A stretch of DNA of 64,000 nt, taken from the IMG/VR virus record IMGVR_UViG_3300031998_000020; one strand, 5' to 3'. Positions 34,341-59,041 of this stretch are shown piece after piece. Below the pieces are notes generated by a model that made no database searches, had not been told where the DNA came from, and worked only from the letters and a program-made list of their open reading frames with translations. The stretch's first letter is position 1. Every line of letters begins with the position of its first letter. The position numbers and the translations under genes were made by a program. This stretch comes from a virus (taxonomy: Duplodnaviria > Heunggongvirae > Uroviricota > Caudoviricetes).

Positions 34341-34724
34341 ATGAAAAGAAAAGAAGAAATATTACAAGCAGCAGAAAAAAGCGTATTGGGCTATCATCCT
34401 GCTATACAGAAGATGTGTACCGAATGTTTTATAGAAGGTGCCGAGTGGTCTGATGCTAATCCAGATAAAAAACACGTCTATACCAAGCGTGAACTGATGG
34501 ACATGAAATTCGCCTTCACTCTTAACGGTGACATCGTAACCCCAGAAGAGATGAGGAAGGACTTGCATCTCCTGATTAAGCATGAGAAAGAACAACAGCT
34601 TAAAAAGGTTATGAAATTGTTGGAAAACATTGCCTTTAAATATGTTGAAACATATGGCAGTGAATATGAAGGCTATGATACGCAAGGCTTGTTAGAAGAG
34701 CTCAAAAAAGGATTGGAGGAATAG
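34341..34724 (+). CDS. Hypothetical protein, AEW(A/S)D family relative.
   Basis: KEEILQAAEKS...FIEGAEWSDANPDKK resembles TEEIIKAADEAS...FIQGAEWADKTM. Confidence 0.5.
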   Translation: MKRKEEILQAAEKSVLGYHPAIQKMCTECFIEGAEWSDANPDKKHVYTKRELMDMKFAFTLNGDIVTPEEMRKDLHLLIKHEKEQQLKKVMKLLENIAFKYVETYGSEYEGYDTQGLLEELKKGLEE

Positions 34725-34726
34725 AT

Positions 34727-35044
34727 ATGGCGCAGAAAACACAAGAAGAATTGAAAAAGGAACTTGAGGCACTATATCCCAATATGACTAAGAGAGTAGT
34801 CTATACAAGCGAAAAAACGGTTGTTGACAATGTAGGTAGCGTACAATATTTTGAAATCACCCAAATACCTTATAGGGTTAAAGGAATGAGAGATTTCAAA
34901 TTTAGGAACTACACGGAATTTCCTAATGGTATAAGAAATGAACGCATAGGGGATATTACTATCCTTCAACTAAGAAATCTATTGGGGCTACTAAAGAAAA
35001 TGGAAGCTGATGGTTTTTTGGATGAAGTTTATGTAAAAGAATAG
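34727..35044 (+). CDS. Hypothetical protein.
   Basis: ORF with a GGAGGAATAG junction upstream. Confidence 0.45.
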   Translation: MAQKTQEELKKELEALYPNMTKRVVYTSEKTVVDNVGSVQYFEITQIPYRVKGMRDFKFRNYTEFPNGIRNERIGDITILQLRNLLGLLKKMEADGFLDEVYVKE

Positions 35045-35046
35045 GA

Positions 35047-35514
35047 ATGAATATGATTAAAGCAGCAGAACTTCAAATAGGCGATTGGGTAGTGTATAAC
35101 GGCAATAAGTACCAAGTTACTTATCTATACTGCCGTCCTCTACCTGATGGTACTCTCCCTGCCAACGAGGTGGGATTTACCCATAAAGAAGATTTTTGGG
35201 TTAACGGAGGAAGTGTAGAACCGATTCCTCTTACAGAGGATATATTAAAGCTGAATGGTTTTGTACTCGACGATGGCAACTATTATTGTTGTATCAATGG
35301 TGATGATTTTTGGGTGAGACTTCCAAAAGAGAACACCTTGTATCCTTATGTCGATATTACGTACTATTCTCTATTTTACATGCCAGAAGATGTAACAGAG
35401 GTATCTCACTCGAATGAGTTGCATTTCCCCCGAATGGCATACGTTCATCAACTCCAACAAGTGTTGCGAATTTGTGGTTTGGGTGATTTTGCAAATAACC
35501 TCAAAATACAATAA
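35047..35514 (+). CDS. GDWV/HELQHALR-family protein.
   Basis: ELQIGDWVVYNGN...EPIPLTEDILKLNGF...VHQLQQVLRICGLGDFANNLKIQ. Confidence 0.7.
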   Translation: MNMIKAAELQIGDWVVYNGNKYQVTYLYCRPLPDGTLPANEVGFTHKEDFWVNGGSVEPIPLTEDILKLNGFVLDDGNYYCCINGDDFWVRLPKENTLYPYVDITYYSLFYMPEDVTEVSHSNELHFPRMAYVHQLQQVLRICGLGDFANNLKIQ

Positions 35515-35518
35515 AATT

Positions 35519-35674
35519 ATGAATCAGTCAAATATGAATTTTAGGCAGCAGGTAGAATGCCTTAAGGAACGTTTACATGATATCTTAGATGGTGAAATGG
35601 GCCATTGGGATATTGATTGTGGAGTCTTTGAGACCGCTTTACGAGAGTTTGCCGATGAATTAGAAATCGAATAG
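35519..35674 (+). CDS. Small hypothetical protein (51 aa).
   Basis: First ATG; the upstream part of the track ORF overlaps the preceding gene. Confidence 0.35.
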   Translation: MNQSNMNFRQQVECLKERLHDILDGEMGHWDIDCGVFETALREFADELEIE

Positions 35675-35676
35675 GC

Positions 35677-35868
35677 ATGGATAAGAAACATCGTATCAAT
35701 AGTACATGGGAGGATATTGGCTTGCGTGAAGCGATAATCAACAAATTGAACGTCATTCACGAAGTCAGGCACCAATTCAACGGAATTGATTCTATTTCTC
35801 AGATAGAGGAAATGCTTTGGGGTAATCTGCATGAAGTTGAAAACAGAATAATAGAAAACATAAAATAA
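35677..35868 (+). CDS. Hypothetical small protein.
   Basis: ORF. Confidence 0.4.
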   Translation: MDKKHRINSTWEDIGLREAIINKLNVIHEVRHQFNGIDSISQIEEMLWGNLHEVENRIIENIK

Positions 35869-35869
35869 T

Positions 35870-36070
35870 ATGGCAAAGATTAAGCAATGCCCAGATAGTG
35901 ATTTATGGACCCCTCAGTGCAGAACATGCATTGATTGGTACGACTGTTATCGAGATGACGGTCCCAATCCAGAAGCAACGTCGTTTTGTCTTCGTAGTGA
36001 TTGTGAGCATATACGCCACAAGCATTCTCTGGGTGAGGATGTTACATGCCGTTGGTTTATGGAACTTTAA
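35870..36070 (+). CDS. Small Cys-rich protein (putative Zn-binding).
   Basis: CPDSDLWTPQCRTCIDWYDC...CLRSDCEH...C. Confidence 0.45.
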   Translation: MAKIKQCPDSDLWTPQCRTCIDWYDCYRDDGPNPEATSFCLRSDCEHIRHKHSLGEDVTCRWFMEL

Positions 36071-36086
36071 TTGCAACAAGTAAAAT

Positions 36087-36329
36087 ATGGCGGTAAAGCG
36101 TTGGAGGGCTGATATTGGAAAATCCTATTATTGTTTAGCCGACACATCATCAGGTGTTAGGATTGTTGAAGTGAAAGACGTTCGTAGTAGGCTTGATGAT
36201 AATAGATATGAGCTTGGTAATTACTTCAAGGATAAGAATCCACCGATATGTTTACACGCATATCCGATTTTGCAATTATTGAAGGAAGGTTACGACGTGT
36301 ATGCTTTTAACGAAAAAATGGAGGAATAG
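36087..36329 (+). CDS. Hypothetical protein with a GNYF module.
   Basis: RYELGNYFKDKNPPI. Confidence 0.5.
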   Translation: MAVKRWRADIGKSYYCLADTSSGVRIVEVKDVRSRLDDNRYELGNYFKDKNPPICLHAYPILQLLKEGYDVYAFNEKMEE

Positions 36330-36332
36330 GCT

Positions 36333-36833
36333 ATGACACAAAAAGAAAGAGAAATCTTATTCAAAGACCTTAGTGGTAGATTGCCGTATGGTGTAATCGT
36401 AGATTACAAGGAGAACGAGTATGATTCCCGTGATTGGAAGATTTCTACATTACACGCTCCTGCATATAGTCAGAGTGGTAGTCTGATAAGCACAGACTAT
36501 GATGGTTGGATTGAATATGAAGAGTATCACGGATGCGGTATGTCAACAGGTTCAAGAACATTTAAGATTGAACAACATAAGCCGTACCTAAGACCCTTGT
36601 CAAGCATGACAGAAAAGGAGAAGAAAAAATTCCTTGATGCTGACATGGATGACTTGAAGATTTGTAGTGAAGCTATGCTAAAGAAGCTACAAATGAACAG
36701 TAACGAAGAAACAATATATGGTATGTATCATCATATCGATTGGTTAGACAAGTACATGTTTGACTATAGAGGTTTAATCCCAATGGGCCTTGCGCTAGAG
36801 GCTCCAGAAGGAATGTATCAAATGGAGGAATAA
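36333..36833 (+). CDS. KPYLRP-family protein.
   Basis: MTQKEREILFKDLSGRLPYG...HKPYLRPLSSMTEKEKKKF...FDYRGLIPMGLALEAPEGMY. Confidence 0.75.
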   Translation: MTQKEREILFKDLSGRLPYGVIVDYKENEYDSRDWKISTLHAPAYSQSGSLISTDYDGWIEYEEYHGCGMSTGSRTFKIEQHKPYLRPLSSMTEKEKKKFLDADMDDLKICSEAMLKKLQMNSNEETIYGMYHHIDWLDKYMFDYRGLIPMGLALEAPEGMYQMEE

Positions 36834-36835
36834 AG

Positions 36836-37084
36836 ATGTTATTCAAAGCTATATTCTATGGAAAAGAGCACCGCAAGCCGTATAGTAATAGGTGTCTCAG
36901 GAAAAATGGTTGGTACTGTCTTTGTGATTTTAGTCACAACCCAGATACCCAAGACCCATTAGTGAAGAGTGATAGGTTGCACAGCAATCGTAAGAGAGAA
37001 GTCGCTTCCTATTACGATGTCCGAGAATATGGCTATGTGAAATCGTCGTTCAGAATAAAGAATGTCAATTTAATGGAGGAATAA
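36836..37084 (+). CDS. Hypothetical small protein.
   Basis: ORF between GGAGGAATAA junctions. Confidence 0.4.
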   Translation: MLFKAIFYGKEHRKPYSNRCLRKNGWYCLCDFSHNPDTQDPLVKSDRLHSNRKREVASYYDVREYGYVKSSFRIKNVNLMEE

Positions 37085-37087
37085 ACA

Positions 37088-37342
37088 ATGAAGAATATTA
37101 TGTTATTAATACTCACAACCTTGATAATGGTTGGGTGTATTGATGAAGAAGAAAGAGAAGAGGCAGAAAGATTGGAGGGCTTTAATATTGTCGTTATTGA
37201 TAGTTGTGAGTATCTAAAAAGGGACGATGCAATGGGATATCAAGGTTATGGATATTTTGCTCACAAAGGCAACTGTCGTTTCTGTCAAGAACGTAAGCAA
37301 AAAGAATTGGAAAAGTTAAAAATAGAATTAAAAGAGAAATAA
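37088..37342 (+). CDS. Small lipoprotein (MVGC lipobox).
   Basis: MKNIMLLILTTLIMVGC. Confidence 0.5.
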   Translation: MKNIMLLILTTLIMVGCIDEEEREEAERLEGFNIVVIDSCEYLKRDDAMGYQGYGYFAHKGNCRFCQERKQKELEKLKIELKEK

Positions 37343-37344
37343 TT

Positions 37345-38229
37345 ATGGACTACGAACAGAAATATAAGGAAGCTCTTGATAGGGCAAAGAAATGGCGTAA
37401 CGCACCAAACTCTGATAAAATCCCTACTTATGCTAATAGAGTTATCGAGGAAATTTTTCCAGAACTCAAAGAGAGTGAGGACGAAAAGATTAGGAAAGCA
37501 ATTATATTGTTCTTTGAACTTCAAGATGACAACACTACTTATTCTTTTGTACCCAAGAAAGATATTCTTGCCTGGCTTGAAAAGCAAGGTGAGCAGAAGT
37601 CTGTTTCTATTACAGATGAATGGATTGATGATTACTGGCAACATCATAAAGTGATTAATCCTGACTCCTACAATAAAGGTGAAGAGATTCAATTTGACTA
37701 TCAAGGTTTCGTAAGTTTCTGCAAATATATTACAAGACTTGCTTGTCTTGAAAAGCAAGGTGAGAAGTCACAAAGTGAATCATCACTTGAAACAATCAAC
37801 GAAGAAAAGCTTGAATCAAAGTTTAATGTTGGTGATTGGGTAGTATATTGTGGTAAAACTTGTAAAATTACAGGATTACATAATGGTGTTTTCACGATAA
37901 CAAACCAAGACGGCAGTTATTTCTTCAATCAAGTTGAATCTACAACTGAACCAGTTTTTCATCTCTGGACCATCGATGATGCAAAGGACGGTGATGTTCT
38001 TTGTGCAAACTATGGTGGAGCAAAGCCTTTTATATTCAGTGAAAACAATTATTGTTCTGCATATTGTGCCCTCAATTCATTTGGTGAATTTATATTGGAA
38101 CCTGCTGAATGGTTAGTTAAAGCAGGTGTATCTCCTGCAACCAAAGAACAACGTGATACTCTGTTCCAAAGGATGAAAGAAGCAGGTTATGAGTGGGATG
38201 AAAATAAAAAGGAGCTAATAAAGTTATAA
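37345..38229 (+). CDS. LAWLEKQGE-repeat-family protein (paralog 1 of 3).
   Basis: Shared N-terminus (KYKEALDRAKKW...IFPELKE.EDE(K/R)IRK), two copies of LAWLEKQGE / LACLEKQGE, a GDW(V/I/L) core, and a C-terminus PATKEQRDTLFQRMKEAGYEWDENKKEL. Confidence 0.75.
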   Translation: MDYEQKYKEALDRAKKWRNAPNSDKIPTYANRVIEEIFPELKESEDEKIRKAIILFFELQDDNTTYSFVPKKDILAWLEKQGEQKSVSITDEWIDDYWQHHKVINPDSYNKGEEIQFDYQGFVSFCKYITRLACLEKQGEKSQSESSLETINEEKLESKFNVGDWVVYCGKTCKITGLHNGVFTITNQDGSYFFNQVESTTEPVFHLWTIDDAKDGDVLCANYGGAKPFIFSENNYCSAYCALNSFGEFILEPAEWLVKAGVSPATKEQRDTLFQRMKEAGYEWDENKKELIKL

Positions 38230-38232
38230 GAT

Positions 38233-39672
38233 ATGAAAGAACTTAGTATAGAACAGAAAGCCAAACGCTATGATGAGGCACTTGCAAGGGCAAGAGAAAT
38301 ACACAGTGAAGGTAAAGCACAGTGCCATAACGTTATGACAAAGGTTTTCCCCGAAATCAAAGAGATTGAGGATGAAAGAATTAGGAGACTAATTATCAAG
38401 CACTTCAAGGAGATTGCTAACAGCAATGAGCAGTCTTGGAAAAACCTTGACATCCCATATATTCTTGCCTGGCTTGAAAAGCAAGGTGAAACAAATATCA
38501 AAAATAATAATCCAGTTAAAATAGAATCTGATAAATTCTACTTCTGCATCAAAGATTATTTTGCAGGCGGTTGTTGTCGTTCCAAAAATGGCGATGTGGT
38601 TTTGGCTAAAAACGGTATGAATATGATGGGGCTTTCTCCAAAAGAAGCATCAGAATATTTTATACCAATCAACCCTTTCAATGAATATGTTGTTGCCTGG
38701 CTTGAAAAGCAAGGTGAACCCATTGACAAGATAGTAAAAAGGGCTATGAATGAAAAACAAAGAGTCCTTCTCACTGAAACAAATGGTGATGCAAATATAG
38801 ATTGGGATACTCGTAGCCTTCAAGATGTAAAATCACTGTTGGAGTATGGCTTAGATTACATTAAGAAACTCGAAAAACAGGATAAGCAAAACATTGATGA
38901 TAAGGTTGAATTAAAGTATAAAGATGGTGATTGGATTGTATATGACAATAATGTCTATAAAATAGTCAATATACCGCATGGTAAATATTATGAATGTCTT
39001 GGGATTGATAATACAATTCGTGTGTATAATCATCTTATTGATAATAAATCCCATCTTTGGGCAATCGAAGATGCAACGGAGGGTGATGTGCTTACTGTTG
39101 ATTGGTATCAGGGTGATGATTCTTGGGAAAAAATCATAATTTTCAAGAAATATCATAATAAAGGCATAGAAGGATTGATTAATGCATCATGTGTTGAAGG
39201 GTATGGTAATACATTCAAAAATAGAAAAATGGCATTTGTCGAAGAAGTACCATATTATTCTAAAACATGGACAGACAATTTACATCCAGCAACTAAAGAA
39301 CAGCGTAATCTTTTGTTTCAAAGAATGAAAGAAGCAGGTTATGAGTGGGATGCCGAGCAAAAAGAGTTGAAAAAGATTCAACAGAAGCCTACTTGGAGTG
39401 AAGAGGATGAAAATTCCCTTTTGGATGTACTATGGTGTTGTAAAAAGGTTGCAAGCATTGCAAAAGATGAAAATGAAATGGGTACTGTCTGGTGTGCAGA
39501 ACGATGGCTCAATTCTCTCAAAGAGAGATACACTTGGAAGCCTACTGAAAAGCAAATTAACGCAATAAGGCTTGCAAGAAGTTTCGTGACAGATGATTTT
39601 GGTAATAATCCAACTCTATCAGAAACACTTCTCGACTTGGAAAAACAATTAAAGAAAATAATGGAGGTATAA
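38233..39672 (+). CDS. LAWLEKQGE-repeat-family protein (paralog 2, longest; two AWLEKQGE copies plus an extra C-terminal domain).
   Basis: See the 37345 gene. Confidence 0.75.
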   Translation: MKELSIEQKAKRYDEALARAREIHSEGKAQCHNVMTKVFPEIKEIEDERIRRLIIKHFKEIANSNEQSWKNLDIPYILAWLEKQGETNIKNNNPVKIESDKFYFCIKDYFAGGCCRSKNGDVVLAKNGMNMMGLSPKEASEYFIPINPFNEYVVAWLEKQGEPIDKIVKRAMNEKQRVLLTETNGDANIDWDTRSLQDVKSLLEYGLDYIKKLEKQDKQNIDDKVELKYKDGDWIVYDNNVYKIVNIPHGKYYECLGIDNTIRVYNHLIDNKSHLWAIEDATEGDVLTVDWYQGDDSWEKIIIFKKYHNKGIEGLINASCVEGYGNTFKNRKMAFVEEVPYYSKTWTDNLHPATKEQRNLLFQRMKEAGYEWDAEQKELKKIQQKPTWSEEDENSLLDVLWCCKKVASIAKDENEMGTVWCAERWLNSLKERYTWKPTEKQINAIRLARSFVTDDFGNNPTLSETLLDLEKQLKKIMEV

Positions 39673-39675
39673 AGT

Positions 39676-40533
39676 ATGAAAGAACTATCAATAGAAGAGA
39701 AATCCAAACGTTATGAAAAAGCTTTAGATGAGGCTAAAGCAATTCATAAAGCTATAAGAAAAGATTTAAAGCCAGTTATCGAACAAATCTTTCCCGAACT
39801 CATAGAAACTGAGGATGAAAGGATAAGGAAAGAGATAACAGACTTTATAAGAAGGAAATTTGAAAACTCATGTTCACCAACACCATCCAAAACTACATTG
39901 GCTAATTGGATTACTTGGCTTGAACAGCAAGGCGAGAAGAAGCCAGGAGAAGATTCTCTAACTCTTGAAGAGTTTGAAAATGCTTTTATTACTAAAGCAA
40001 AACAATATGATATAGACCTCCCTAATCGTAGTTGGGATATTCATGCCTTATGCAAAGAATTATACTCACTAAAGCATAAGCCAAAGCAAGGTGAGCAGAA
40101 TCCTGCTGATAAGGTTGAACCAAAGTTTCATGAAGGAGATTGGCTTGTTACTGATAAAGGTGATACAGTCCAAATTGGGATAGTCAACAACGACTATTAC
40201 ACCATAGGTAATGGAATGCTTTTTAACATGTCTTATGTAGATACATGTTGGCATTTGTGGACTATCGAAGATGCAAAGGACGGTGATGTGCTTCGTCTTG
40301 GCTATGTAATTGCAATATTCAAAAAATATATTGGTCAAAATAATTGTATATGCTATTGTTCTTATGTTAAAGGTGTAGGTTTTGAAGTTCCAATTAAAAA
40401 TGGAGAAGATAATGTCTATGGTTGTAGAAATACTACTCCAGCCTCCAAAGAAGAGCGTGACCTCTTATTCCAAAAAATGAAAGAAGCAGACTATGAATGG
40501 GATGCTAACAAAAAAGAACTAAAAAAGTTATAA
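39676..40533 (+). CDS. LAWLEKQGE-repeat-family protein (paralog 3).
   Basis: See the 37345 gene; ITWLEQQGE and KPKQGEQ repeats. Confidence 0.75.
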   Translation: MKELSIEEKSKRYEKALDEAKAIHKAIRKDLKPVIEQIFPELIETEDERIRKEITDFIRRKFENSCSPTPSKTTLANWITWLEQQGEKKPGEDSLTLEEFENAFITKAKQYDIDLPNRSWDIHALCKELYSLKHKPKQGEQNPADKVEPKFHEGDWLVTDKGDTVQIGIVNNDYYTIGNGMLFNMSYVDTCWHLWTIEDAKDGDVLRLGYVIAIFKKYIGQNNCICYCSYVKGVGFEVPIKNGEDNVYGCRNTTPASKEERDLLFQKMKEADYEWDANKKELKKL

Positions 40534-40536
40534 GAT

Positions 40537-40857
40537 ATGAAAGCATATACAGACTTGACACAAAGCAAGAAACTTGCTGAGATACTGCCGCTTGAGAGTG
40601 CGGATATGTATTATCGTGATTGGAAAAGAATGACAAAATATATTCACATTGCTCATGTTGGAAGTGCTGATGAGAAGGATTTGCCTTGTTGGTCTTTAGC
40701 AGCGTTGCTTGAAGTATATCCTATGTGCGTAGGCAGGGATTTAGGAATGTATTGCTGTTGGGTAAACACTAAAAGTATGTGTTTAAGGCATTTTGACAAT
40801 CCTGTCGATGCTTGCGTAGATATGGTATTTGCATTGAAAGAAAGGAATATAATATGA
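40537..40857 (+). CDS. SKKLAEIL-family protein.
   Basis: MKAYTDLTQSKKLAEILPLESADMYYRD...CWSLAALLE...NPVDACVDMVFALKERNI. Confidence 0.7.
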   Translation: MKAYTDLTQSKKLAEILPLESADMYYRDWKRMTKYIHIAHVGSADEKDLPCWSLAALLEVYPMCVGRDLGMYCCWVNTKSMCLRHFDNPVDACVDMVFALKERNII

Positions 40858-41285
40858 AAACAACAGAACTTCAAATATTCGATTGGGTTAAAATCAATCA
40901 TAATCAGAAAAAAGTAAAAGTAAAGGCTGTTTATGAAAATCTGATAGAAACCACTTCTGTTAGTCCTCTTATGGGAGACGAAGTAAGTCCTATCCCTCTC
41001 ACATTTGAAATTCTTGAAAAAAATGGATTTGAGTTAAATGGAGAACTGCCTTTTCGTAAAGAGTTTCGACTTTGTATCAATAAAGATACAGAAGATGAAC
41101 GTTATCTTTTTGTAGATTTCCATCACAAGAGAGATTTTATTATATTGACTTATCAATCCTATACAGGACATGATAATGGCACCAATGGAATAGTTATTAA
41201 CCATTGCGGTGTACATCAATTCCAACATGCTCTTAGAATATGTGGCTTGGATGAACTTGCAGATAATCTCAAATTGGAGGAATGA
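40854..41285 (+). CDS. GDWV/HELQHALR-family protein (start at MKTTELQIFDWV).
   Basis: ATGA start/stop overlap; SPIPLTFEILEKNGF...VHQFQHALRICGLDELADNLKLEE. Confidence 0.7.
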   Translation: MKTTELQIFDWVKINHNQKKVKVKAVYENLIETTSVSPLMGDEVSPIPLTFEILEKNGFELNGELPFRKEFRLCINKDTEDERYLFVDFHHKRDFIILTYQSYTGHDNGTNGIVINHCGVHQFQHALRICGLDELADNLKLEE

Positions 41286-41512
41286 ATATGAAAGCATACA
41301 AAGCATGGGTAGCACGAGATAAAGATGGGTTCTTAATGATATATAATCGTTGCCCCACAAAAAACAATGAAACTGGGTTATGGGAAATAAAGAGTCCCTT
41401 GAGTCCTTTTTACTCTATGGGTTTTATTGAAAACGCATTACCCGATGGTATCGACCCAAAATGGGAGGATGAAGAACCTATTGAAGTTGAACTTAAAATA
41501 GAGAAACTATGA
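41282..41512 (+). CDS. Hypothetical small protein.
   Basis: ORF. Confidence 0.4.
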   Translation: MNMKAYKAWVARDKDGFLMIYNRCPTKNNETGLWEIKSPLSPFYSMGFIENALPDGIDPKWEDEEPIEVELKIEKL

Positions 41513-41829
41513 AATCGTATACAGACATAGAACAATCCAAAAAGTTGGCAGAGATACTGCCATTAGAGAGTGCGGATATGTTTTACCGTGACAATGGAAT
41601 AGATGTAAAACTTATATGGGAACATATTGCTCAAAAAGTAACAAATCCTTGTTGGAGTCTTGCAGCATTGCTTGATGCCCTACCAAAAATATATAATTTA
41701 AAACCAATATTAGACTTAGAAGAAAATTCTATTCTATATAGTGGTATTGACATTTATGTACATGCAGACAATCCTATTGATGCTTGCGTAGACATGATTT
41801 TTAAACTCAAAGAAAAGAATTTATTATGA
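41509..41829 (+). CDS. SKKLAEIL-family protein.
   Basis: MKSYTDIEQSKKLAEILPLESADMFYRD...CWSLAALLD...NPIDACVDMIFKLKEKNL. Confidence 0.7.
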   Translation: MKSYTDIEQSKKLAEILPLESADMFYRDNGIDVKLIWEHIAQKVTNPCWSLAALLDALPKIYNLKPILDLEENSILYSGIDIYVHADNPIDACVDMIFKLKEKNLL

Positions 41830-42275
41830 AACAAGAAGATAAAGACTTGCTGTTAAGGTACCTGTGTATGGCATTGCCGTATGGATTGATTTGTTCAATC
41901 TATCGAATAGATGATTGGAATGTCGGTTGGAGGGACGAAAATTTAACTGGCTATTTCGATAATGGGACGGCATATGAATTTTATTTTGGTAAATCTCCCA
42001 TTTCTATTGATAATGACATTTCTAAAATTAAGCCATATCTCCGTCCAATGTCTTCAATGACTGAAAAAGAAAAGAAAGAGTATAGAAGAACCCAAATTAT
42101 AAAATGGGTTAAAAGTGTTGATTGCACAGGTGGAGGATATTATGAATATAAAGACACTCTTAAAACATATGATTGGCTTAAGAAACATCATTTTGATTTC
42201 ATGGGATTAATCCCAAGAAATTTGGCTATCGAAGTTACAGAAAAAAATAATCCATACAACTTAACGGAGGAATAA
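41826..42275 (+). CDS. KPYLRP-family protein.
   Basis: MKQEDKDLLLRYLCMALPYG...IKPYLRPMSSMTEKEKKEY...FDFMGLIPRNLAIEVTEKNNPY. Confidence 0.75.
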   Translation: MKQEDKDLLLRYLCMALPYGLICSIYRIDDWNVGWRDENLTGYFDNGTAYEFYFGKSPISIDNDISKIKPYLRPMSSMTEKEKKEYRRTQIIKWVKSVDCTGGGYYEYKDTLKTYDWLKKHHFDFMGLIPRNLAIEVTEKNNPYNLTEE

Positions 42276-42277
42276 TT

Positions 42278-42655
42278 ATGATACAGTACATAGACAAAGA
42301 TGCGTTAATAGCGGAGATAAACAAACGTATAATAGATGCACCAATAAATTACGTTGGGCATCAGCGAGTTTGGGCTTATAATGATGTTAAAGACATTCTC
42401 AACACCCTTGAAGTAATAGACCCATATGCATTGTGTATACAATATCCAAGTATAGAAGATGGCATTAAATCTCATGCCGAAGTATATTCTTTCAACATAG
42501 AAAGCAAGTTATTCAATCAATTAACGAAAGAACAGCAAGTATTGTGGAGAAAGGAAATAGAACAGGCTTGTATTAGTGGTGGCGAGGCTGGTGTTGAACT
42601 TGCAAGAGACCCTCGTTACAAGGAAAACCTCGAAGTGAAAGAAATGGAGGAATAA
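42278..42655 (+). CDS. Hypothetical protein.
   Basis: ORF ending ...EMEE with a GGAGGAATAA junction. Confidence 0.45.
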   Translation: MIQYIDKDALIAEINKRIIDAPINYVGHQRVWAYNDVKDILNTLEVIDPYALCIQYPSIEDGIKSHAEVYSFNIESKLFNQLTKEQQVLWRKEIEQACISGGEAGVELARDPRYKENLEVKEMEE

Positions 42656-42657
42656 AT

Positions 42658-42807
42658 ATGGGGTATTTTGTTTGCCAACACTGTGGAGCACACCTTCACG
42701 ACAGTAAAGTAAAGGATTTATATCAATGGGATGACAAAGACTCAATAGGATGGTCTTATGTATGCCCTCGTTGTGGTGAAGAAAATTATAAAGAAATCAA
42801 GATATAA
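42658..42807 (+). CDS. Small zinc-ribbon protein (CxxC...CxxC, 49 aa).
   Basis: MGYFVCQHCGAH...VCPRCGEE; fills the gap between two GGAGGAATA junctions. Confidence 0.4.
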   Translation: MGYFVCQHCGAHLHDSKVKDLYQWDDKDSIGWSYVCPRCGEENYKEIKI

Positions 42808-42812
42808 TAGAT

Positions 42813-43196: not shown

Positions 43197-43214
43197 AATA
43201 ACGGAGGAATAGAT

Positions 43215-43475
43215 ATGATACCACCAAGTAATTGCCCTTATAAAGATTTGGCAAGCCTTCCTTGTTGGACATGCCAATGGCATAATGCAGACATGGACAC
43301 TTGTAATCTTTCGCTAGGCCATACAGCCTCAAGCATAGGAACGGCTGCAACAATTGCCCAAAGCCAATCTTTTGAAGACAGGCTTAGAGCCTATGAAAAT
43401 GAACGCAAAAAGCTACTTGCGTTATCGAAAGAGGAATTAGTGAATCTAATCATCCATCGTCCTACGTTATATTAA
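43215..43475 (+). CDS. Hypothetical protein.
   Basis: ORF. Confidence 0.4.
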   Translation: MIPPSNCPYKDLASLPCWTCQWHNADMDTCNLSLGHTASSIGTAATIAQSQSFEDRLRAYENERKKLLALSKEELVNLIIHRPTLY

Positions 43476-43488
43476 AAACATTAGAACT

Positions 43489-43986: not shown

Positions 43987-43988
43987 TT

Positions 43989-44411: not shown

Positions 44412-44420
44412 ACAAGAAAT

Positions 44421-44741: not shown

Positions 44742-44747
44742 GTTAAT

Positions 44748-44795
44748 TAGTGTTAATAAATTTGGTGGTCTGAAATATATTGTCTATCTTTGCAT
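44748..44795 (+). promoter_or_regulatory. Bacteroidota-type promoter (TTTG 44761; TATCTTTG 44785).
   Basis: gtgttaataaatttggtgg ... TAtcTTTG. Confidence 0.65.
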
Positions 44796-44830
44796 CAGAA
44801 ACAAAATAATAAACAAAAAAAACATTAACA

Positions 44831-45477: not shown

Positions 45478-45492
45478 AAAGGAGGAATAGAT

Positions 45493-45750
45493 ATGAGACT
45501 AAGCGAAATTAGCAAATACCACATATCCATACAAAGGAAAAAATACTGGAATAGAGTGAATAAACGCTATAAAGAGGAAGACTACTTTGTGTGGAAGGAA
45601 GGATGGGATGCAGCAATCCGATTCCTAAGCAAAATGGAGGACAAAGACACATTCTGTTGTCATTGCGGTAAGGCTATTGCACTCGAAGAGATGGAATGGT
45701 TCGGAGAAGACGTGTTCTGTAAAAAGTGTTTCAGGAAATTATATAAGTAG
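45493..45750 (+). CDS. Small zinc-ribbon protein.
   Basis: CCHCG...CKKC. Confidence 0.45.
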   Translation: MRLSEISKYHISIQRKKYWNRVNKRYKEEDYFVWKEGWDAAIRFLSKMEDKDTFCCHCGKAIALEEMEWFGEDVFCKKCFRKLYK

Positions 45751-45771
45751 TCAAGCAATGGAGGACTAGAT

Positions 45772-45906
45772 ATGACACAAAAAGAAAGAGAAATATTGTG
45801 GTCTTGTATTGATGACATAGTCAATTCTGATGAGCAAACAGATGCTTTGGTTTCATTATTCAATGAAGTAAAGAGGATGATTCATTATAAACACAAAGAG
45901 GGATAG
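45772..45906 (+). CDS. Short ORF carrying only the KPYLRP-family N-terminal signature (MTQKEREIL); possible gene remnant.
   Basis: 44 aa; GGAGGACTAGATATG junction. Confidence 0.3.
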   Translation: MTQKEREILWSCIDDIVNSDEQTDALVSLFNEVKRMIHYKHKEG

Positions 45907-45964
45907 ATATGACAAGTGACAGATGTAAGGGAATGTATAACTTTAATCATTAATCATAACATCA

Positions 45965-48154: not shown

Positions 48155-48166
48155 GTTAATAGAGTT

Positions 48167-48364
48167 ATGACATTATTTGAGCTAAAAAATAAAATAGACA
48201 AGATTCTGGAAGAACATCCATCATGGGGTGAAGTGAGCAGAATCGGTATTGTAACCAATACAGAGGAGGATGGTTGGAAGGAAATGACGTATCTGGAAGA
48301 CTTCCGAGCCATTTGTTGTGACGGCCAGGGAATGGTTGCCTTTGAGATGGTAATGGAGGAATAG
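48167..48364 (+). CDS. Hypothetical small protein (ends ...MVMEE).
   Basis: ORF. Confidence 0.4.
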   Translation: MTLFELKNKIDKILEEHPSWGEVSRIGIVTNTEEDGWKEMTYLEDFRAICCDGQGMVAFEMVMEE

Positions 48365-52692: not shown

Positions 52693-53145
52693 ATGTGTAC
52701 ATACTTAAAGGAAATTGAGCTAAAAACAGCAACCCACGACATAAAAGTGTACAAATTGGTCAAATGGGAAGATGGCAAATTCTTTGCGCCATACAGAAAT
52801 GTAGAATACCCTTCTAACACTCTCCACACAGAACTTGGCAAGGTTGTCACTAATCCGTATTGCTCATCCTATATAATGCAAACAGGTTCATGCTCATTCA
52901 TGTGTAAACATTCAATAAACATAGGATTACACTCATTCAAAAGCAAGTTACACGCCAAGCAAGCACTTAAAAATAAGCCTTGGGAGCCTCATTTCAGGTG
53001 GCTAGTGATAAAGGCAGTCATCCCAAAGGGTAGCCAATACTATGAGGGCTTTAGTGATTATCATGTAGGTGGTTATCTAATAAAGCCTGTCTATGTTTCT
53101 GATAATCTCATATTATATCCAGAAGAGATTATTGCTCAAATGTAA
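52693..53145 (+). CDS. Met-Cys-start family, member F.
   Basis: MCTYLKE...HDIKVYKLV...DGKFFAPYRNVEY...GLHSF...AVIPKGSQYYEG...VSDNLIL. Confidence 0.75.
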   Translation: MCTYLKEIELKTATHDIKVYKLVKWEDGKFFAPYRNVEYPSNTLHTELGKVVTNPYCSSYIMQTGSCSFMCKHSINIGLHSFKSKLHAKQALKNKPWEPHFRWLVIKAVIPKGSQYYEGFSDYHVGGYLIKPVYVSDNLILYPEEIIAQM

Positions 53146-53163
53146 TTAATAAAAGTAAACAAT

Positions 53164-53589
53164 ATGTGTACATTCCTAACAACTCGAAAAAGATATACAG
53201 CCAAAAAGAATATGGTTGTTTATAAAATCCTACGAAAAAAAGATGGTGAGTATTTCGCCCCTTACTACGGCACTTCCTACTCTAGCCACCAGTTGTCTAC
53301 TACTACACTTGGTAATCCACGATTCTATAACAACCCCAGTGTGAGAATGAACTATGGTATATGCCAAGGAATACATTCTTTCAGAACAATTCGGGCAGCA
53401 AAAGATTATTTCAACTCATCAGTCTTAGTGTTCCATGAAGACTTGTTTATCGTCAAGGCAATCGTCCCTAAAGGTTCAAACTACTATCCTGGCTATTATG
53501 ATTCAAAGTCAAGTCTCAAGCCAAATTCAATAGTATCCGATTCTATCCAATTAACCAATGAGGAGATTAAACTATGTGTGCATTCTTAA
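53164..53589 (+). CDS. Met-Cys-start family, member G.
   Basis: MCTFLTT...VVYKIL...DGEYFAPYYGTSY...GIHSF...AIVPKGSNYYPG. Confidence 0.75.
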   Translation: MCTFLTTRKRYTAKKNMVVYKILRKKDGEYFAPYYGTSYSSHQLSTTTLGNPRFYNNPSVRMNYGICQGIHSFRTIRAAKDYFNSSVLVFHEDLFIVKAIVPKGSNYYPGYYDSKSSLKPNSIVSDSIQLTNEEIKLCVHS

Positions 53590-54011
53590 TAGACAACAAA
53601 CCCCATGTTGCCGACAAAGACATAGAAGTCTATAAAATGGTCCTGGAACACAACGGTAAATTCTATGCCCCAATACGTGGAACCTTATACGAATCCAACG
53701 ACCTGTCTTCGGAGTTTGGTGAGGTATACGAGTCAGATTATCGTCAACCAATGAACAATACACCTTTGTTTTGTATAGACAAAGGACTATATTCATACTC
53801 AATGCTTGAAGATGCCAACAGACTCCTTTATGATTTTCAGATTATGGGTGGGTCATGCATAAAATACCGTATAATAAAGGCTATCATCCCGAAAGGTACG
53901 GAATATTATGCAGGGTTCGAGAGCTTCGGTTGTAATAGCCCTCTACTTGTCTCAAAGAGACTGATAATGGACTTTGAGAATATCGTGATTATCAAAGCAT
54001 CCTTGCCTTAA
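53574..54011 (+). CDS. Met-Cys-start family, member H.
   Basis: MCAFLID...DIEVYKMV...GKFYAPIRGTLYES...AIIPKGTEYYAG. Confidence 0.75.
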   Translation: MCAFLIDNKPHVADKDIEVYKMVLEHNGKFYAPIRGTLYESNDLSSEFGEVYESDYRQPMNNTPLFCIDKGLYSYSMLEDANRLLYDFQIMGGSCIKYRIIKAIIPKGTEYYAGFESFGCNSPLLVSKRLIMDFENIVIIKASLP

Positions 54012-54073
54012 GAGGCCAGTGATGTTTTAACATAAATAATTATTAACTCAATTAAAACAAATCATCAATAACA

Positions 54074-54529
54074 ATGTGCACAGTAATACATAATCTCACA
54101 AGAAAGACTGCCCAAGAAGACATCGAAGTATATAAGATTGTCATTATTGTTAATCTGTTTGGCAATTCGCAGATTGTAGCACCATATCGGTACACAGTAT
54201 ACGAATCTAACGATGTACACTCAGAACTCGAAGTGCCAACACCACATGTCGTTGAAACTGGCTGCGCTGGAGAAATGAACACGCATAAAATCGAAATAGG
54301 GCTACATTCCATTAAGAATTTGGACGATGCCAAGAGTATGTTTTTTTGGAGATTTAACAACAGAGGAACTTCACAGTTTAAGCTAATTAAAGCTACCATA
54401 CCAAAGGGAAGTGAATACTATGAGGGCTTCGACTTTATTAATGCCCTTGGTGACTATACATGGCCAATGCTTGTCTCTGACAGACTTATACTACACACCG
54501 ACGAAGTGATAGAATCTTCAAGAATATGA
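54074..54529 (+). CDS. Met-Cys-start family, member I.
   Basis: MCTVIHN...DIEVYKIV...APYRYTVYES...GLHSI...ATIPKGSEYYEG...VSDRLIL. Confidence 0.75.
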   Translation: MCTVIHNLTRKTAQEDIEVYKIVIIVNLFGNSQIVAPYRYTVYESNDVHSELEVPTPHVVETGCAGEMNTHKIEIGLHSIKNLDDAKSMFFWRFNNRGTSQFKLIKATIPKGSEYYEGFDFINALGDYTWPMLVSDRLILHTDEVIESSRI

Positions 54530-54950: not shown

Positions 54951-55150
54951 GTATGACACAAGCAAAGTTAGAACTAGGGCATACACTAGCAGAAATTGAC
55001 AATGGTATGCCTAATGGTATGCTTACAGATTGCGAGGCATACGGAATGTGTGGCGGTTGTGATGAATATTGCCCTGTTCTCAGAGCAGGAAAATGTGAGT
55101 TACAAGATACAGACAATGCAGAACTTTACAAAAAATCAATGGAGGGATAA
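54947..55150 (+). CDS. Small Cys-rich protein.
   Basis: CEAYGMCGGCDEYCPVLRAGKC. Confidence 0.4.
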   Translation: MSMTQAKLELGHTLAEIDNGMPNGMLTDCEAYGMCGGCDEYCPVLRAGKCELQDTDNAELYKKSMEG

Positions 55151-55153
55151 ATT

Positions 55154-55558
55154 ATGAATTGGACAAATTTAGAACAAAGTAAGAAATTTTTAGCTTTGGG
55201 AGTAAATCCCCAAAGCGCAGATATGGGTATCTGTGTATGTGTCGATGATACGGAAAGGTATTTGCCGATAGATGATTGGGACTTGCCCAAGAATGGCGAA
55301 GATGGCACGAAATTTTATCCAAGTTGGAGTGTTGGCGCATTAATTGACTTAATGCCACTATGCATAGGAGAATCTGCACCATTTTTTTTGCATGTAACAA
55401 ATTCATATGTAGAATATGCTAATGCAATAAAAGGCGTAGGAATTTATTATTCAGCAGGAACAAACGGATTGATTGATGCTTGCTTTAAGATGGTGGTATG
55501 GCTGATTGAAAACAAATACATCAAAGTAAAGGAGCAGAATGTCGAAACGGAGGAGTAA
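55154..55558 (+). CDS. SKKLAEIL-family protein (divergent member).
   Basis: NLEQSKKFLALGVNPQSADMGI...PSWSVGALIDLMP...GLIDACFKMVVWLIEN. Confidence 0.6.
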   Translation: MNWTNLEQSKKFLALGVNPQSADMGICVCVDDTERYLPIDDWDLPKNGEDGTKFYPSWSVGALIDLMPLCIGESAPFFLHVTNSYVEYANAIKGVGIYYSAGTNGLIDACFKMVVWLIENKYIKVKEQNVETEE

Positions 55559-55560
55559 AT

Positions 55561-56088
55561 ATGAGTAAGACAGACAGCTTGCACTATCAACTATGCTGTG
55601 AAGGAGCCAAGTGGTTACGCAGACAGAAAAAGAATAACGAGCGTTGTCGGAAGAAATCATGCTTTCGCACAGAGGCTTGCGGTTGCTGCTTCAAGTACAA
55701 GTATGTAGCCGTAGAATTATGCACATGGAATAGCGAGAATACCGATGTTTGGGGGTTAGGCAATTTCAGTGACAGTGTCGTAATTGAGGTAAAGACATCT
55801 CACTCTGACTTCCTTGCAGATAGAAAGAAGTGGTGTAGGAGCGAATATGCCGAGACCTCTGGTCTGCAAGCTGGCAGGTTACGGTGGTATCTATGTCCAG
55901 AAGGTGTCATCAGTAAGGATGAATTACCTGATAGATGGGGTCTTCTGTATTGGGACGGGAAGAAAGTCTATCCTGTTGTGGCTCCGAAGAAGTTCGAGAA
56001 TACAGGTTGGGCAGATATAGATATACTCACAAGTATCTTGAGACGTGAAGGCTTCAAGGAGGGAATTTTCAACTATAGACAAAAATAA
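55561..56088 (+). CDS. Cys-rich protein with a possible PD-(D/E)xK-like nuclease motif (SDSVVIEVK).
   Basis: D...EVK triad seen, with short spacing; assignment is speculative. Confidence 0.45.
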   Translation: MSKTDSLHYQLCCEGAKWLRRQKKNNERCRKKSCFRTEACGCCFKYKYVAVELCTWNSENTDVWGLGNFSDSVVIEVKTSHSDFLADRKKWCRSEYAETSGLQAGRLRWYLCPEGVISKDELPDRWGLLYWDGKKVYPVVAPKKFENTGWADIDILTSILRREGFKEGIFNYRQK

Positions 56089-57290: not shown

Positions 57291-57293
57291 ACT

Positions 57294-57791
57294 ATGGAAG
57301 CATGGATAACATATGAAAAAGGCAAGTTTTATTTGTGCAAAAATATAATACTTGCTAAAAAAGGTTGGGAAGGTGAGGGTGTAATGGCTGTTTTGTCCGA
57401 AGAAGACCTTCCAGAAGGTTACACCCCTCAAGAAGAGCCTGTTGCAGTTGAATTTCATCTTCAACCAAGAGGAAGAAAAGAATTGATAAAATACGACCCC
57501 TCACATGTAGATTATAATCCTTATGAGCCAAATCCAAAGCCATATAAATATACTGCTAAAAGCTTAGCTGATATAATTCCTTTTGGAAAATATAAAGGCA
57601 AAAGCCTTAAAGAAGTTTTGGATAAAGGTCAGTGGAGGTATATCCATTGGTTAAATAGTGAAAATATTGTATATTACCCTCGCTCTCTAGAAAATGATAT
57701 ACACGCTGCTTCATATGTAATAGCAAACTACCACTGGCCAGACCCTGATTATTTTGACTATGAATATAATGTTGATGCTTCATATAGTTAG
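57294..57791 (+). CDS. DUF3820-like protein (FGKYKGK.L.EV......YI.WL motif).
   Basis: IIPFGKYKGKSLKEVLDKGQWRYIHWL. Confidence 0.5.
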   Translation: MEAWITYEKGKFYLCKNIILAKKGWEGEGVMAVLSEEDLPEGYTPQEEPVAVEFHLQPRGRKELIKYDPSHVDYNPYEPNPKPYKYTAKSLADIIPFGKYKGKSLKEVLDKGQWRYIHWLNSENIVYYPRSLENDIHAASYVIANYHWPDPDYFDYEYNVDASYS

Positions 57792-57811
57792 TATTTGATA
57801 CCAAAAGGTCT

Positions 57812-57852
57812 TGCTATTAAAGCAGTCACCAAGTAAATGTGATTGCTTTTTT
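57812..57852 (+). terminator. Intrinsic terminator (GCAGTCAC...GTGATTGC plus T7).
   Basis: 8-bp stem with one GU, followed by a T-run. Confidence 0.6.
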
Positions 57853-57857
57853 TGTTA

Positions 57858-57905
57858 AATATTGTTAAGAAATTTGGTAATCTGAAACAATTTCATTACC
57901 TTTGC
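57858..57905 (+). promoter_or_regulatory. Bacteroidota-type promoter (TTTG 57873; TACCTTTG 57896).
   Basis: attgttaagaaatttggtaat ... TAccTTTG. Confidence 0.65.
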
Positions 57906-57935
57906 AACAAAACCAAAATAATAGCAAAATAACAT

Positions 57936-58340
57936 ATGACACAGGAAGAACAAAAAATATTACTGCAAGACCTTTGCGCACGTCTGCCACACGATGTGAA
58001 TGTATGGGTGAAAACTCATCATGGCCAAATCATTGAATCTGATATTTTGACCTTATGCAATGGTGGGGGATATTATTCCACGTTAACCTATGAGGGAATT
58101 ATGAATGATTCTGTGGTTAAGCCATACCTCAGACCATTCTCAGAAATGACAGAGGAAGAGAAGAAAGAATACAAAGACTTACTCTATTGTGTTAAGTATG
58201 CAGATGATACAGTCTTAGCAGTTAATATGCTTACTGATTGGCTCAATGCACATCACTTTGATTATCGTGGCCTAATCCCAATGGGTCTTGCACTAAAGGC
58301 TCCAGAGGGAATGTATAATGTGGTAAACGAAAGTGAGTAG
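57936..58340 (+). CDS. KPYLRP-family protein.
   Basis: MTQEEQKILLQDLCARLPHD...VKPYLRPFSEMTEEEKKEY...FDYRGLIPMGLALKAPEGMY. Confidence 0.75.
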   Translation: MTQEEQKILLQDLCARLPHDVNVWVKTHHGQIIESDILTLCNGGGYYSTLTYEGIMNDSVVKPYLRPFSEMTEEEKKEYKDLLYCVKYADDTVLAVNMLTDWLNAHHFDYRGLIPMGLALKAPEGMYNVVNESE

Positions 58341-58370
58341 TAACAGACTATAATACACTAACAGAAAATT

Positions 58371-58550
58371 ATGCTAAAAAGAACAAACATGCCACCGTTG
58401 GGAGTAAAGCCAAGATGGATAATAGAGGAAGAAAGGATAAAGGAATTGCAAGATGCTATTAAGAGGTTTCTTGATGCAAACTGGCCGATTCCTGATGAAG
58501 TATTCAAGGAGTACAATGCCTTGACACAACGTTTAGAGATAGAGGAATAA
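58371..58550 (+). CDS. Small hypothetical protein (59 aa).
   Basis: Fills a gap; ends ...IEE with a GAGGAATAAATATG junction. Confidence 0.3.
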   Translation: MLKRTNMPPLGVKPRWIIEEERIKELQDAIKRFLDANWPIPDEVFKEYNALTQRLEIEE

Positions 58551-58552
58551 AT

Positions 58553-59041
58553 ATGACCAGAAAAGAAGAAATACAACATAAAGCAGACGAAATATTCAGA
58601 AAAGGTGATTTTGGTTTATTGTCTGATTATGAAGTAGCCACACACGTTGCAACTGAAACAGCAGAGTGGGCAGACAAGACCATGCTTGACAAAGTTTGTG
58701 ACTATCTGTCAAAATTGAAATTTTGCAAGCTATCGTCAATAGCTAGTGTCTCCAATATGCCAGTATTCTCAGAAGAGGACATCGAAAAACTGCGCAAAGC
58801 AATGGAGGAAATCGATATTCCTATGGTATCCCCCTCTGCAATGGATTTGCAAACATATCTCAATAATTCTGCACCTTGTAGTCATTGCATATTTTTCAAA
58901 GACTTGAAATGTACATTTCCTGAGAATAAAAAGAAAGAATGCAGTCAGGAACTGGGTACTATTAAAGGCTGGAATACCAAAGAATACCAAAGAATACCAA
59001 AGGATATCGACGTAAATCTTATTAAGGAACAGTTATGCTAA
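58553..59041 (+). CDS. AEWADKTMLDK-family protein (longer paralog of 6969..7229).
   Basis: About 85% nt identity with 7075-7225. Confidence 0.6.
   Translation: MTRKEEIQHKADEIFRKGDFGLLSDYEVATHVATETAEWADKTMLDKVCDYLSKLKFCKLSSIASVSNMPVFSEEDIEKLRKAMEEIDIPMVSPSAMDLQTYLNNSAPCSHCIFFKDLKCTFPENKKKECSQELGTIKGWNTKEYQRIPKDIDVNLIKEQLC

Follow-up and report, generated by a model that had tools for sequence, protein, structure and literature searches.

Shine-Dalgarno sequences at internal gene junctions of a phage whose host is most likely a member of the Bacteroidales

Bacteroidota keep the anti-Shine-Dalgarno (anti-SD) sequence but hide it, and a need for it has so far been shown only for rpsU translation and for rRNA processing, both in Flavobacterium. 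Why, then, does a stretch of phage DNA with Bacteroidota-type promoters carry the Shine-Dalgarno (SD) core GGAGG ahead of internal genes? The stretch, called the window throughout, comprises 64,000 nucleotides (nt) of the Caudoviricetes record IMGVR_UViG_3300031998_000020 in IMG/VR. A sequence-only reading had reported strong SDs embedded in the Met-Glu-Glu-stop ends of upstream genes and had proposed that they serve translational coupling within polycistrons. Its observation is partly confirmed, in that the junctions are real but their consensus is much less uniform than claimed. Its interpretation is also supported, with the coupling suggested by the position of the sites. We consider that the GGAGG sites are probably functional SDs aiding re-initiation at internal cistrons, the Glu-Glu tails of the upstream proteins being a by-product.

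To count the sites, we used a curated set of + strand starts, in which three - strand open reading frames (ORFs) were replaced by + strand ORFs ending in the junction motif, an ORF overlapping a tRNA-like element was dropped, and the start at 41282 was shifted to 41288. A perfect GGAGG lies 5 to 8 nt upstream of 20 of the 131 starts (about 15%), and 7 more have a near-perfect core. The spacing to the ATG is 7 or 8 nt in 19 of the 20 sites and 5 nt in one. Less uniform is the sequence itself. At least 15 junctions had been said to share ATGGAGGAATA(A/G)ATATG, whereas the exact 17-mer occurs once, at 42644-42660. The region from 34716 to 58556 holds 13 perfect and 2 near sites (AGAGG at 45897 and 58541) among 52 starts, so that "at least 15" is true of the degenerate motif and not of perfect GGAGG. 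The positions listed for individual junctions were right to within about 1 to 12 nt; the one at 48352 is an orphan Met-Glu-Glu-stop (MEE-stop; tails are given in one-letter code) with no downstream ATG. The sites are as follows.

34141..34153, + strand: SD junction GGAGGTACTAATG, 1-nt overlap with the upstream gene
34715..34729, + strand: SD junction, LEE-TAG, 2 nt, ATG
36320..36335, + strand: SD junction, MEE-TAG, 3 nt, ATG
36824..36838, + strand: SD junction, MEE-TAA, 2 nt, ATG
37075..37090, + strand: SD junction, MEE-TAA, 3 nt, ATG
39663..39678, + strand: SD junction GGAGGTATAA, MEV-TAA, 3 nt, ATG, between two family C paralogues
41276..41290, + strand: SD junction GGAGGAATGAATATG, LEE-TGA; the likely true start is ATG 41288, not 41282
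42266..42280, + strand: SD junction, TEE-TAA, 2 nt, ATG
42644..42660, + strand: SD junction and sole exact 17-mer, MEE-TAA, 2 nt, ATG; the next gene is a 49-aa zinc-ribbon ORF
43203..43217, + strand: intergenic SD, 18 nt past the upstream stop, homologous to the TEE junction at 42266
45481..45495, + strand: intergenic SD AAGGAGGAATAGATATG, 15 nt past the upstream stop
45760..45774, + strand: intergenic SD ATGGAGGACTAGATATG
45897..45911, + strand: near-SD junction AGAGGGATAGATATG, KEG-TAG, followed only by a 14-codon ORF (to 45953)
48353..48364, + strand: orphan ATGGAGGAATAG, MEE-stop ending the last gene of its operon, no ATG after it, hairpin at 48398
55141..55156, + strand: SD junction GGAGGGATAA, MEG-TAA, 3 nt, ATG
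55549..55563, + strand: SD junction GGAGGAGTAA, TEE-TAA, 2 nt, ATG
58541..58555, + strand: near-SD junction AGAGGAATAAATATG, IEE-TAA, with + strand ORF 58371-58550 as its upstream gene
6465..6480, + strand: SD junction outside 34716-58556, VEE-TAA
7949, 19761, 26000, 32249 and 33245: further SD junctions outside 34716-58556

Two of these places invite comment in their own right. The short stretch at 45897-45953, before a 308-aa gene at 45965, represents a gene in decay or else a small upstream ORF. The orphan at 48353-48364 may be the remnant of a junction that lost its downstream gene to a minus-strand module. In addition, GGAGGTATAAACATG at 8951-8965 (+ strand) lies inside a 242-aa ORF (8597-9325) with its ATG in the frame of that ORF, and this ATG may be an internal start yielding a shorter isoform. 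The family of the 242-aa ORF has shorter paralogues at 28350, 28819, 36087 and 45493.

Several controls set these sites apart from chance occurrences. The core is complementary to CCUCC of the 16S rRNA 3' tail, stands within the usual distance of about 5 to 10 nt from the start, and is enriched at true starts: the motif precedes 18 of 1639 non-start ATGs (about 1.1%; Fisher p = 1.6e-14 versus starts). Against shuffled sequence, GGAGG-N7-ATG occurs 15 times versus 1.78 expected, and GGAGGAATARATATG with up to two mismatches occurs 13 times, always on the + strand, versus 0.46 expected. In the spacing histogram, 16 of 17 nearby sites fall at 7 to 8 nt. Predicted anti-SD pairing of -7 kcal/mol or stronger was found in 26 of 147 start regions and in 7 of 147 mock windows. 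With a canonical 16S tail, ACCUCCUU, assumed for the host, the SD sites have predicted duplex energies of about -9.3 to -10.6 kcal/mol, the strongest being AAGGAGGA at about -10.6 kcal/mol. The pairing core spans 5 base pairs (bp), with no pairing at the U or C that precedes it or at the A that follows; none of the sites has the extended pairing of the rpsU type, with at least 9 consecutive bp and an energy below -13 kcal/mol. Extended or alternative anti-SD pairing was also considered as an explanation of the ATG before and the AATA after GGAGG and was rejected from the sequence itself, in which the A-rich part lies on the wrong side for the CCUCCUUUCU tail.

The sites are distributed according to the gap between a gene and its upstream neighbor. 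GGAGG precedes 14 of 39 starts with a gap of 0 to 5 nt, 3 of 22 with an overlap, 3 of 38 with a gap of 6 to 25 nt, and none of the 31 with a gap of more than 25 nt (Fisher p = 7e-5). The last class contains all first cistrons after promoters, none of which has an SD. A signal for de novo initiation in general would not be so limited to tight junctions, and the pattern speaks instead for coupling. Overlaps and gaps of 0 to 5 nt account for 17 of the 20 sites. All sites are on the + strand between co-directional neighbors on one transcript, with promoters only at block edges, and they concentrate in the operon at 33.7-44.7 kb and in the first part of the following one, as far as 45.9 kb.

Most junctions have the order GGAGG, stop codon, 2 to 3 nt, ATG, commonly written as NNG-GAG-GAA-stop, and all three stop codons occur. 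Since the stop lies 2 to 3 nt before the ATG, it is the final three codons of the upstream gene that have to contain the SD, which fixes the protein tail as xEE (x being variable) or, more rarely, xEV or xEG. This layout yields MEE, LEE and TEE tails as a by-product. The MEE, LEE and TEE tails of the sequence-only reading are confirmed: MEE occurs four times, LEE and TEE twice each, and VEE, MEV, MEG, LEG, GEG, IEE and KEG once each. The expected constraint on C termini is visible as well, Glu being the last residue of 30 of 147 ORFs versus 7.7% of residues overall.

Could the motif be functionless, a by-product of acidic tails, purine-rich coding DNA and repeated duplication of a cassette? 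A GAATAA or GAATAG ending is frequent in upstream genes without GGAGG as well, leaving Glu over-represented as the last residue there too, one MEE-stop has no gene after it, and old paralogues with 25 to 45% identity fill much of the window in arrays. The arrays occupy 34-48 kb, 52-64 kb and other parts of the window, and families A to E match no known function. Their members are listed by position.

Family A: 36333, 41826, 42813, 43989, 45965, 56508, 56934, 57936
Family B: 35047, 40854, 43489, 47499, 56095, 59250
Family C: 37345, 38233, 39676
Family E: 52693 to 54074; 61299 to 62934
Beta-solenoid family, with a match to the YdcK family: 2394, 14594, 29345

Neither descent nor selection on the proteins accounts for the junctions. 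No repeat family in the window covers an SD junction, the flanking genes belong to many unrelated families (or, where related, are 25 to 45% identical), and homologues of family C in other phages have SD-less starts in 106 of 115 cases. Only the pair at 42266 and 43203 is clearly homologous. An origin from a mobile repeat or from paralogy was rejected on these grounds; the motif lies outside longer repeats and is not limited to a single paralogue family. Family A paralogues share a conserved ...APE(G/D)MY end followed by a differing tail of 2 to 5 residues (MEE, TEE, FE, IE or QKE), some of these tails encoding the SD and others not. Compared with its homologue at 42266, the site at 43203 has a 4-nt indel that moves the stop upstream; its ACGGAGGAATAG is noncoding yet intact. 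At all three intergenic sites (43203, 45481 and 45760), the spacer stop closes an alternative frame that is open for 28 to 46 codons, which suggests that these sites are former in-frame tails. The sharp spacing peak, the mock-window and non-start ATG controls, the absence of the motif at wide gaps and its persistence out of frame all speak against a functionless motif, as does its recurrence in distant phages in other codon frames (EE, ED, GG and RRK tails) at the same spacing. We regard this explanation as extremely doubtful.

Whether SDs are unexpected here depends on the host. The sequence-only reading had called the promoters classical Bacteroidota -33/-7 elements, and they bear this out. 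The pattern TTTG-N19-21-TAnnTTTG has 22 matches in the window versus 3.9 expected, and about 15 of these belong to a single extended family, constant in its 32-nt span and sharing a consensus. As in primary-sigma promoters of Bacteroidota, a -33 TTTG and a -7 TAnnTTTG lie 19 to 21 nt apart ahead of transcription units; every member of the family sits in the gap before a gene block, and none lies elsewhere. The promoters that bear on the junctions are listed below. No convincing + strand terminator was found between 33.7 and 44.7 kb.

33673..33704, + strand: Bacteroidota-type promoter heading the polycistron of about 11 kb (33732-44672) that is home to most SD junctions
44761..44792, + strand: Bacteroidota-type promoter driving the next operon, 44831-48364
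51057, 52627, 54578 and 57873: further Bacteroidota-type promoters

The promoters themselves are part of larger units. About 15 share an extended 67-nt consensus (for example, 8489-8555, 30636-30702, 44736-44802 and 57848-57914). Upstream of the -33 TTTG it reads TTTTTTGTTAA-N4-TGTTAA-nAAA, a T-run followed by a direct GTTAA repeat, and downstream of the -7 element it reads GCA-N-C-AGAAA. This consensus could combine a terminator with the promoter, or a regulator encoded by the phage could bind there. A 107-nt unit made up of promoter, leader and first gene codons is present in five copies (21444-21550 and 44732-44838, plus 4753, 11685 and 30632), and its leader AATAATAAACAAAAAAACATTAACAATG is almost identical at 21543 and 44831.

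Start regions and database matches point to the same host. The SD-less starts, about 80% of the total, are A-rich and G-poor upstream, with A at -3, -4, -6, -7 and -11 to -14 and T at -1. This T is present at 63% of SD-less starts and at 12 of 17 SD-led starts, versus a background of 28%, and genes of the Bacteroides thetaiotaomicron plasmid p5482 have the same A-rich, T(-1) start context. The nucleotidyltransferase encoded at 15431-16759 has its top phage match in Prevotella Lak megaphages (43% identity), and the genomes that best match the Tpt1 enzyme are Prevotella lacticifex (62%) and a metagenome-assembled Bacteroides (61%). With promoters, SD-less start context and matches to Prevotella and Bacteroides in accord, a Bacteroidales host is well supported; the host is most likely a member of this order, possibly Prevotella-like.

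We further compared the frequency of GGAGG starts with that in other phages and a plasmid, using an uncurated ORF-calling pipeline throughout except for p5482, for which annotated starts were taken.

Bacillus phage SPP1: 29% (51% at -7 kcal/mol or stronger)
The window, uncurated: 17/135, 12.6%
crAss001: 4/116
Bacteroides phage B40-8: 2/65
Lak-C1 (50 kb): 0/83
B. thetaiotaomicron plasmid p5482: 1/37

None of the three control phages (crAss001, B40-8 and Lak-C1) has GGAGG at a 0- to 5-nt junction. The frequency of about 15% in the curated set thus exceeds both the 0 to 3.5% of the control Bacteroidota phages and plasmid and the 1.7% published for Bacteroidia (PMC7797042), as the sequence-only reading had anticipated for a comparison with host genes. 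These figures also bear on the explanation that the host, from outside the Bacteroidota or from an atypical lineage, simply reads SDs in the normal way, the sites being ordinary ribosome-binding sites. The identity of the host is deduced from the phage DNA, and SD use varies widely among related loci, rising with GC content. The 17-mer is common in IMG/VR, where about half of the contigs that carry it are SD-rich, and the identical string is thus common in phages with SD-rich genomes. Set against this are the roughly 15 canonical -33/-7 promoters, the nearest phage and genome matches in Prevotella and Bacteroides, and the start regions, 80% of which are G-depleted and A-rich like those of Bacteroides, whereas SPP1, phage of an SD-using host, reaches 29 to 51% in the same pipeline. 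An SD-reading host therefore seems very unlikely to us.

The junction is not confined to the window. Related loci of rumen phages supplied about 2700 starts, among which GGAGG has a spacing peak at 6 to 8 nt and is most frequent at gaps of 0 to 5 nt (8.4%); MEE, KEE, REE, KED and EED tails recur, MEE being the commonest. SD use in these loci varies, the relatives with low GC having none and L010 and L043 coming close to the window. Some of the IMG/VR contigs with the 17-mer are SD-poor, have Bacteroidota promoters and contain clusters of the same junction. In the loci L322, L313, L235 and L241, for example, canonical Bacteroidota promoters and few SDs are accompanied by junction runs such as TTGGAGGATTGATTATG and ATGGAGGAATAGTTATG, so that the feature extends beyond this phage group to other putative Bacteroidota phages. 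Full-text literature searches found no prior description of SD-led junctions in Bacteroidota phages, and Cellulophaga phages are stated to lack the SD feature (preprint 10.1101/2021.04.21.440840).

How might such junctions work? Two start types coexist in the phage, about 80% being SD-less, A-rich and unstructured and about 15% having GGAGG 7 to 8 nt before the ATG. In the re-initiation that we favor, a ribosome would end the upstream gene with the SD within its mRNA channel. Once the protein is released, either the small subunit or a 70S ribosome that has not split would stay on the mRNA and shift by about 8 nt, and pairing of GGAGG with the 3' tail of 16S rRNA would hold the next ATG in the P site, allowing the internal cistron to be re-initiated. 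Tight junctions leave no space for an A-rich leader to support de novo loading. Both the pairing with the anti-SD and the coupling to upstream translation are what we infer from the arrangement of the sites. A different model, in which RNA structure hides the SD-led starts until it is unfolded, was rejected, as SD-led and other starts do not differ significantly (-4.8 versus -3.65 kcal/mol, p = 0.09).

There is partial precedent within the probable host class. The ribosomal-protein genes rpsR, rplI, rplE, rplF, rplW and rpmD are internal cistrons of their operons. Bacteroidia genomes, with SD use of 1.7%, nevertheless have strong SDs at these very genes (PMC7797042), which lowers the surprise of finding SDs in the phage. 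In haloarchaea, the SD serves re-initiation and not de novo initiation (PMC6728339).

A number of observations weigh against SD-assisted re-initiation. In Bacteroidia ribosomes, bS21, bS18 and bS6 cover the anti-SD, and SDs are ignored in reporter assays as well as in vitro (PMC7797042, PMC9976891). A single gene is proven to depend on its SD, rpsU of Flavobacterium; it pairs over 9 to 13 bp, and a single mismatch abolishes its initiation (PMC13000453); the SDs of the window have a 5-bp core and about -9 kcal/mol, versus less than -13 kcal/mol for rpsU. A survey of 720 genomes reported Bacteroidetes without SD use even at overlapping gene pairs (PMC6728339). The sites at 43203, 45481 and 45760, with gaps of 15 to 21 nt, lack the close stop and start of coupled genes, and such distances exceed those reported to allow termination-reinitiation (PMC10666635). 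The host is deduced and its 16S tail is assumed to be canonical. Further, ATG precedes GAG-GAA in 9 of 16 in-frame cases, versus 10.7% of NNG codons (p = 1e-5), a preference for which the model does not account, and the MEE-stop at 48353-48364 has no gene to serve. Finally, with no close relative available, selection could be measured on only six locus pairs: GGAGG is kept at 28 of 30 positions, compared with roughly 0.7 upstream, numbers too few to weigh.

The sequestered anti-SD raises the alternative that the sites are read de novo, as a separately regulated class, by ribosomes in which the absence of bS21 or bS18, either natural or brought about by the phage, frees the anti-SD. In Flavobacterium johnsoniae, more than 10% of ribosomes are normally without bS21 (PMC13000453), and bS21-less ribosomes initiate faster on strong-SD mRNA and more slowly on SD-less mRNA (PMC9976891). 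Many Bacteroidia phages encode bS21 (PMC9723584). The clustering of SD sites in particular operons (33.7-44.7 kb and the next up to 45.9 kb) would suit such a class, and de novo initiation is more plausible for the three intergenic sites 15 to 21 nt past a stop. A general de novo signal would, however, be expected at first cistrons and distant starts, where the SD is present at 0 of 31. The matches listed from domain scans of the window ORFs include no ribosomal protein or translation factor, and a search of the window and 137 related loci, each of which samples part of a genome, detected neither bS21 nor bS18 homologues. The core is also far shorter than the SDs known to displace bS21. On balance, we judge this alternative unlikely. 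A bolder version, that some Bacteroidales phages use a private code of short SDs read only by ribosomes with a free 16S tail (naturally deficient in bS21 or bS18, or remodeled by a factor that the phage encodes outside the window), appears distinctly unlikely. If true, the phage cistron block would gain ribosomes for which the SD-less host mRNAs compete poorly.

The unexplained bases around the core suggest one more alternative, in which the GGAGG block has another RNA function, as an endoribonuclease site (compare T4 RegB, which cuts GGAG) or the site of a phage translational repressor. The conserved (A/T)TGGAGGAATAR is broader than anti-SD pairing needs and gains no further pairing from its flanks, re-initiation does not account for the frequent ATG before GAG, and the window has RNA-repair-type genes, namely, Tpt1 and RlaP. 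Yet the strict 7- to 8-nt spacing and the canonical core are what is expected of a ribosome-binding site, the extra conserved bases are explained by the GAA codon and the stop codon, and the matches listed from the Pfam, NCBIfam and PHROG scans include no RegB-like or known repressor family. We consider another RNA function highly improbable and retain SD-assisted re-initiation as the probable role of the junctions.

What the junctions serve is a set of genes with little assigned function. The window has dense small genes, nearly all on the + strand, at 37% GC, and is most likely part of a huge phage from a rumen-type community. No nucleotide match to it was found in the phage collection. The 479-aa protein encoded at 38233-39672 has dozens of relatives on IMG/VR contigs of 100 to 400 kb and in further metagenome assemblies, with identity never above 58%; the accession prefixes of these assemblies resemble those of what we take to be rumen projects. 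Ten representatives of the SD-led genes had zero Pfam matches, and 4 of the 10 had PHROGs matches, nearly all to families of unknown function. Domains recognized in the window include YopX, BspA-type leucine-rich repeats, Tpt1 RNA 2'-phosphotransferase, RlaP, PARG and NT5C. A match to ABC-F "ribosomal protection" proteins was rejected as generic P-loop similarity, far below the cut-off. Three features of this surrounding region are located as follows.

10133-10657: Tpt1 RNA 2'-phosphotransferase gene
15431-16759: RlaP nucleotidyltransferase gene
48430-50982, - strand: gene for an 850-aa protein with BspA-type leucine-rich repeats

The 850-aa gene is isolated on the minus strand, where the local GC skew is flat or reversed, and lies between a terminator-like hairpin (48398) and a promoter (51057). 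Its appearance is that of an insertion encoding an adhesin or other surface protein. A tRNA-like element at 24139-24252 (+ strand) scores 36.5 bits against the Rfam tRNA model with acceptor, D and T arms intact; its anticodon region spans 56 nt versus 13 in the model, and ARAGORN made no call. The ORF 24153-24329 with an AAGGAG "SD" was rejected as spurious, because AAGGAGA is the acceptor stem of this element. With Tpt1 and RlaP encoded in the same window, one may ask whether this tRNA contains an intron or depends on repair.

Twenty SD-led cistrons in 64 kb, none of them first, form a natural data set pointing to a use of the hidden anti-SD in re-initiation, and the occurrence of the pattern in other IMG/VR contigs with Bacteroidota promoters suggests an overlooked general feature. 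The junctions are short enough to serve as test sequences, since the SD is lost on a synonymous change from GAG to GAA, and operon design in gut Bacteroides could borrow them. Gene callers relying on SD-less Bacteroidota models may misplace starts in such phages.

Among known systems, the junctions resemble the SD-assisted termination-reinitiation of bacteria and phages, with the SD in the upstream 3' end, a close stop and start, canonical spacing, and internal cistrons as targets. They differ from usual coupling in their Bacteroidota-type context, in a phylum reported to be SD-blind and SD-less even at overlapping pairs (PMC6728339, PMC7797042), and in preferring a 2- to 3-nt gap over the common ATGA overlap (14 of 39 versus 3 of 22). 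As in haloarchaea (Huber et al. 2019, PMC6728339), first cistrons are SD-less and tightly linked downstream cistrons are often SD-led; unlike the window, haloarchaea are archaeal, with mostly leaderless mRNAs, mainly 4-nt overlaps and an anti-SD that is not known to be sequestered.

Phage-encoded bS21 has been proposed to redirect the anti-SD step of initiation in Bacteroidia phages (PMC9723584), and it is also attributed to Mizuno et al. 2019 (as cited in PMC9976891). The window and its sampled relatives differ from these cases, as no bS21 gene was found in them, and those papers report no SD-led phage cistrons. Autoregulation of rpsU (bS21) in Flavobacteriia (PMC9976891, PMC13000453) resembles the junctions in its SD/anti-SD pairing, which is proven there, and demonstrates that SD-competent ribosomes exist in the phylum. 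It concerns a single gene with 9 to 13 bp and less than -13 kcal/mol, whereas the window has twenty sites with a 5-bp core and about -9 kcal/mol, tied to junction geometry. The SDs of Bacteroidia ribosomal-protein genes (Jha et al. 2021, PMC7797042) share with the junctions the probable host class, an SD-poor genome and strong SDs (-7 kcal/mol or better). Those SDs belong to host housekeeping genes with a proposed autoregulation of bS18 (PMC7797042), whereas the phage uses SDs at about nine times the Bacteroidia rate (15% versus 1.7%) before unrelated small genes of unknown function. The SD junction is thus a known element in an unexpected setting, with partial precedent in the ribosomal-protein operons of the host class.

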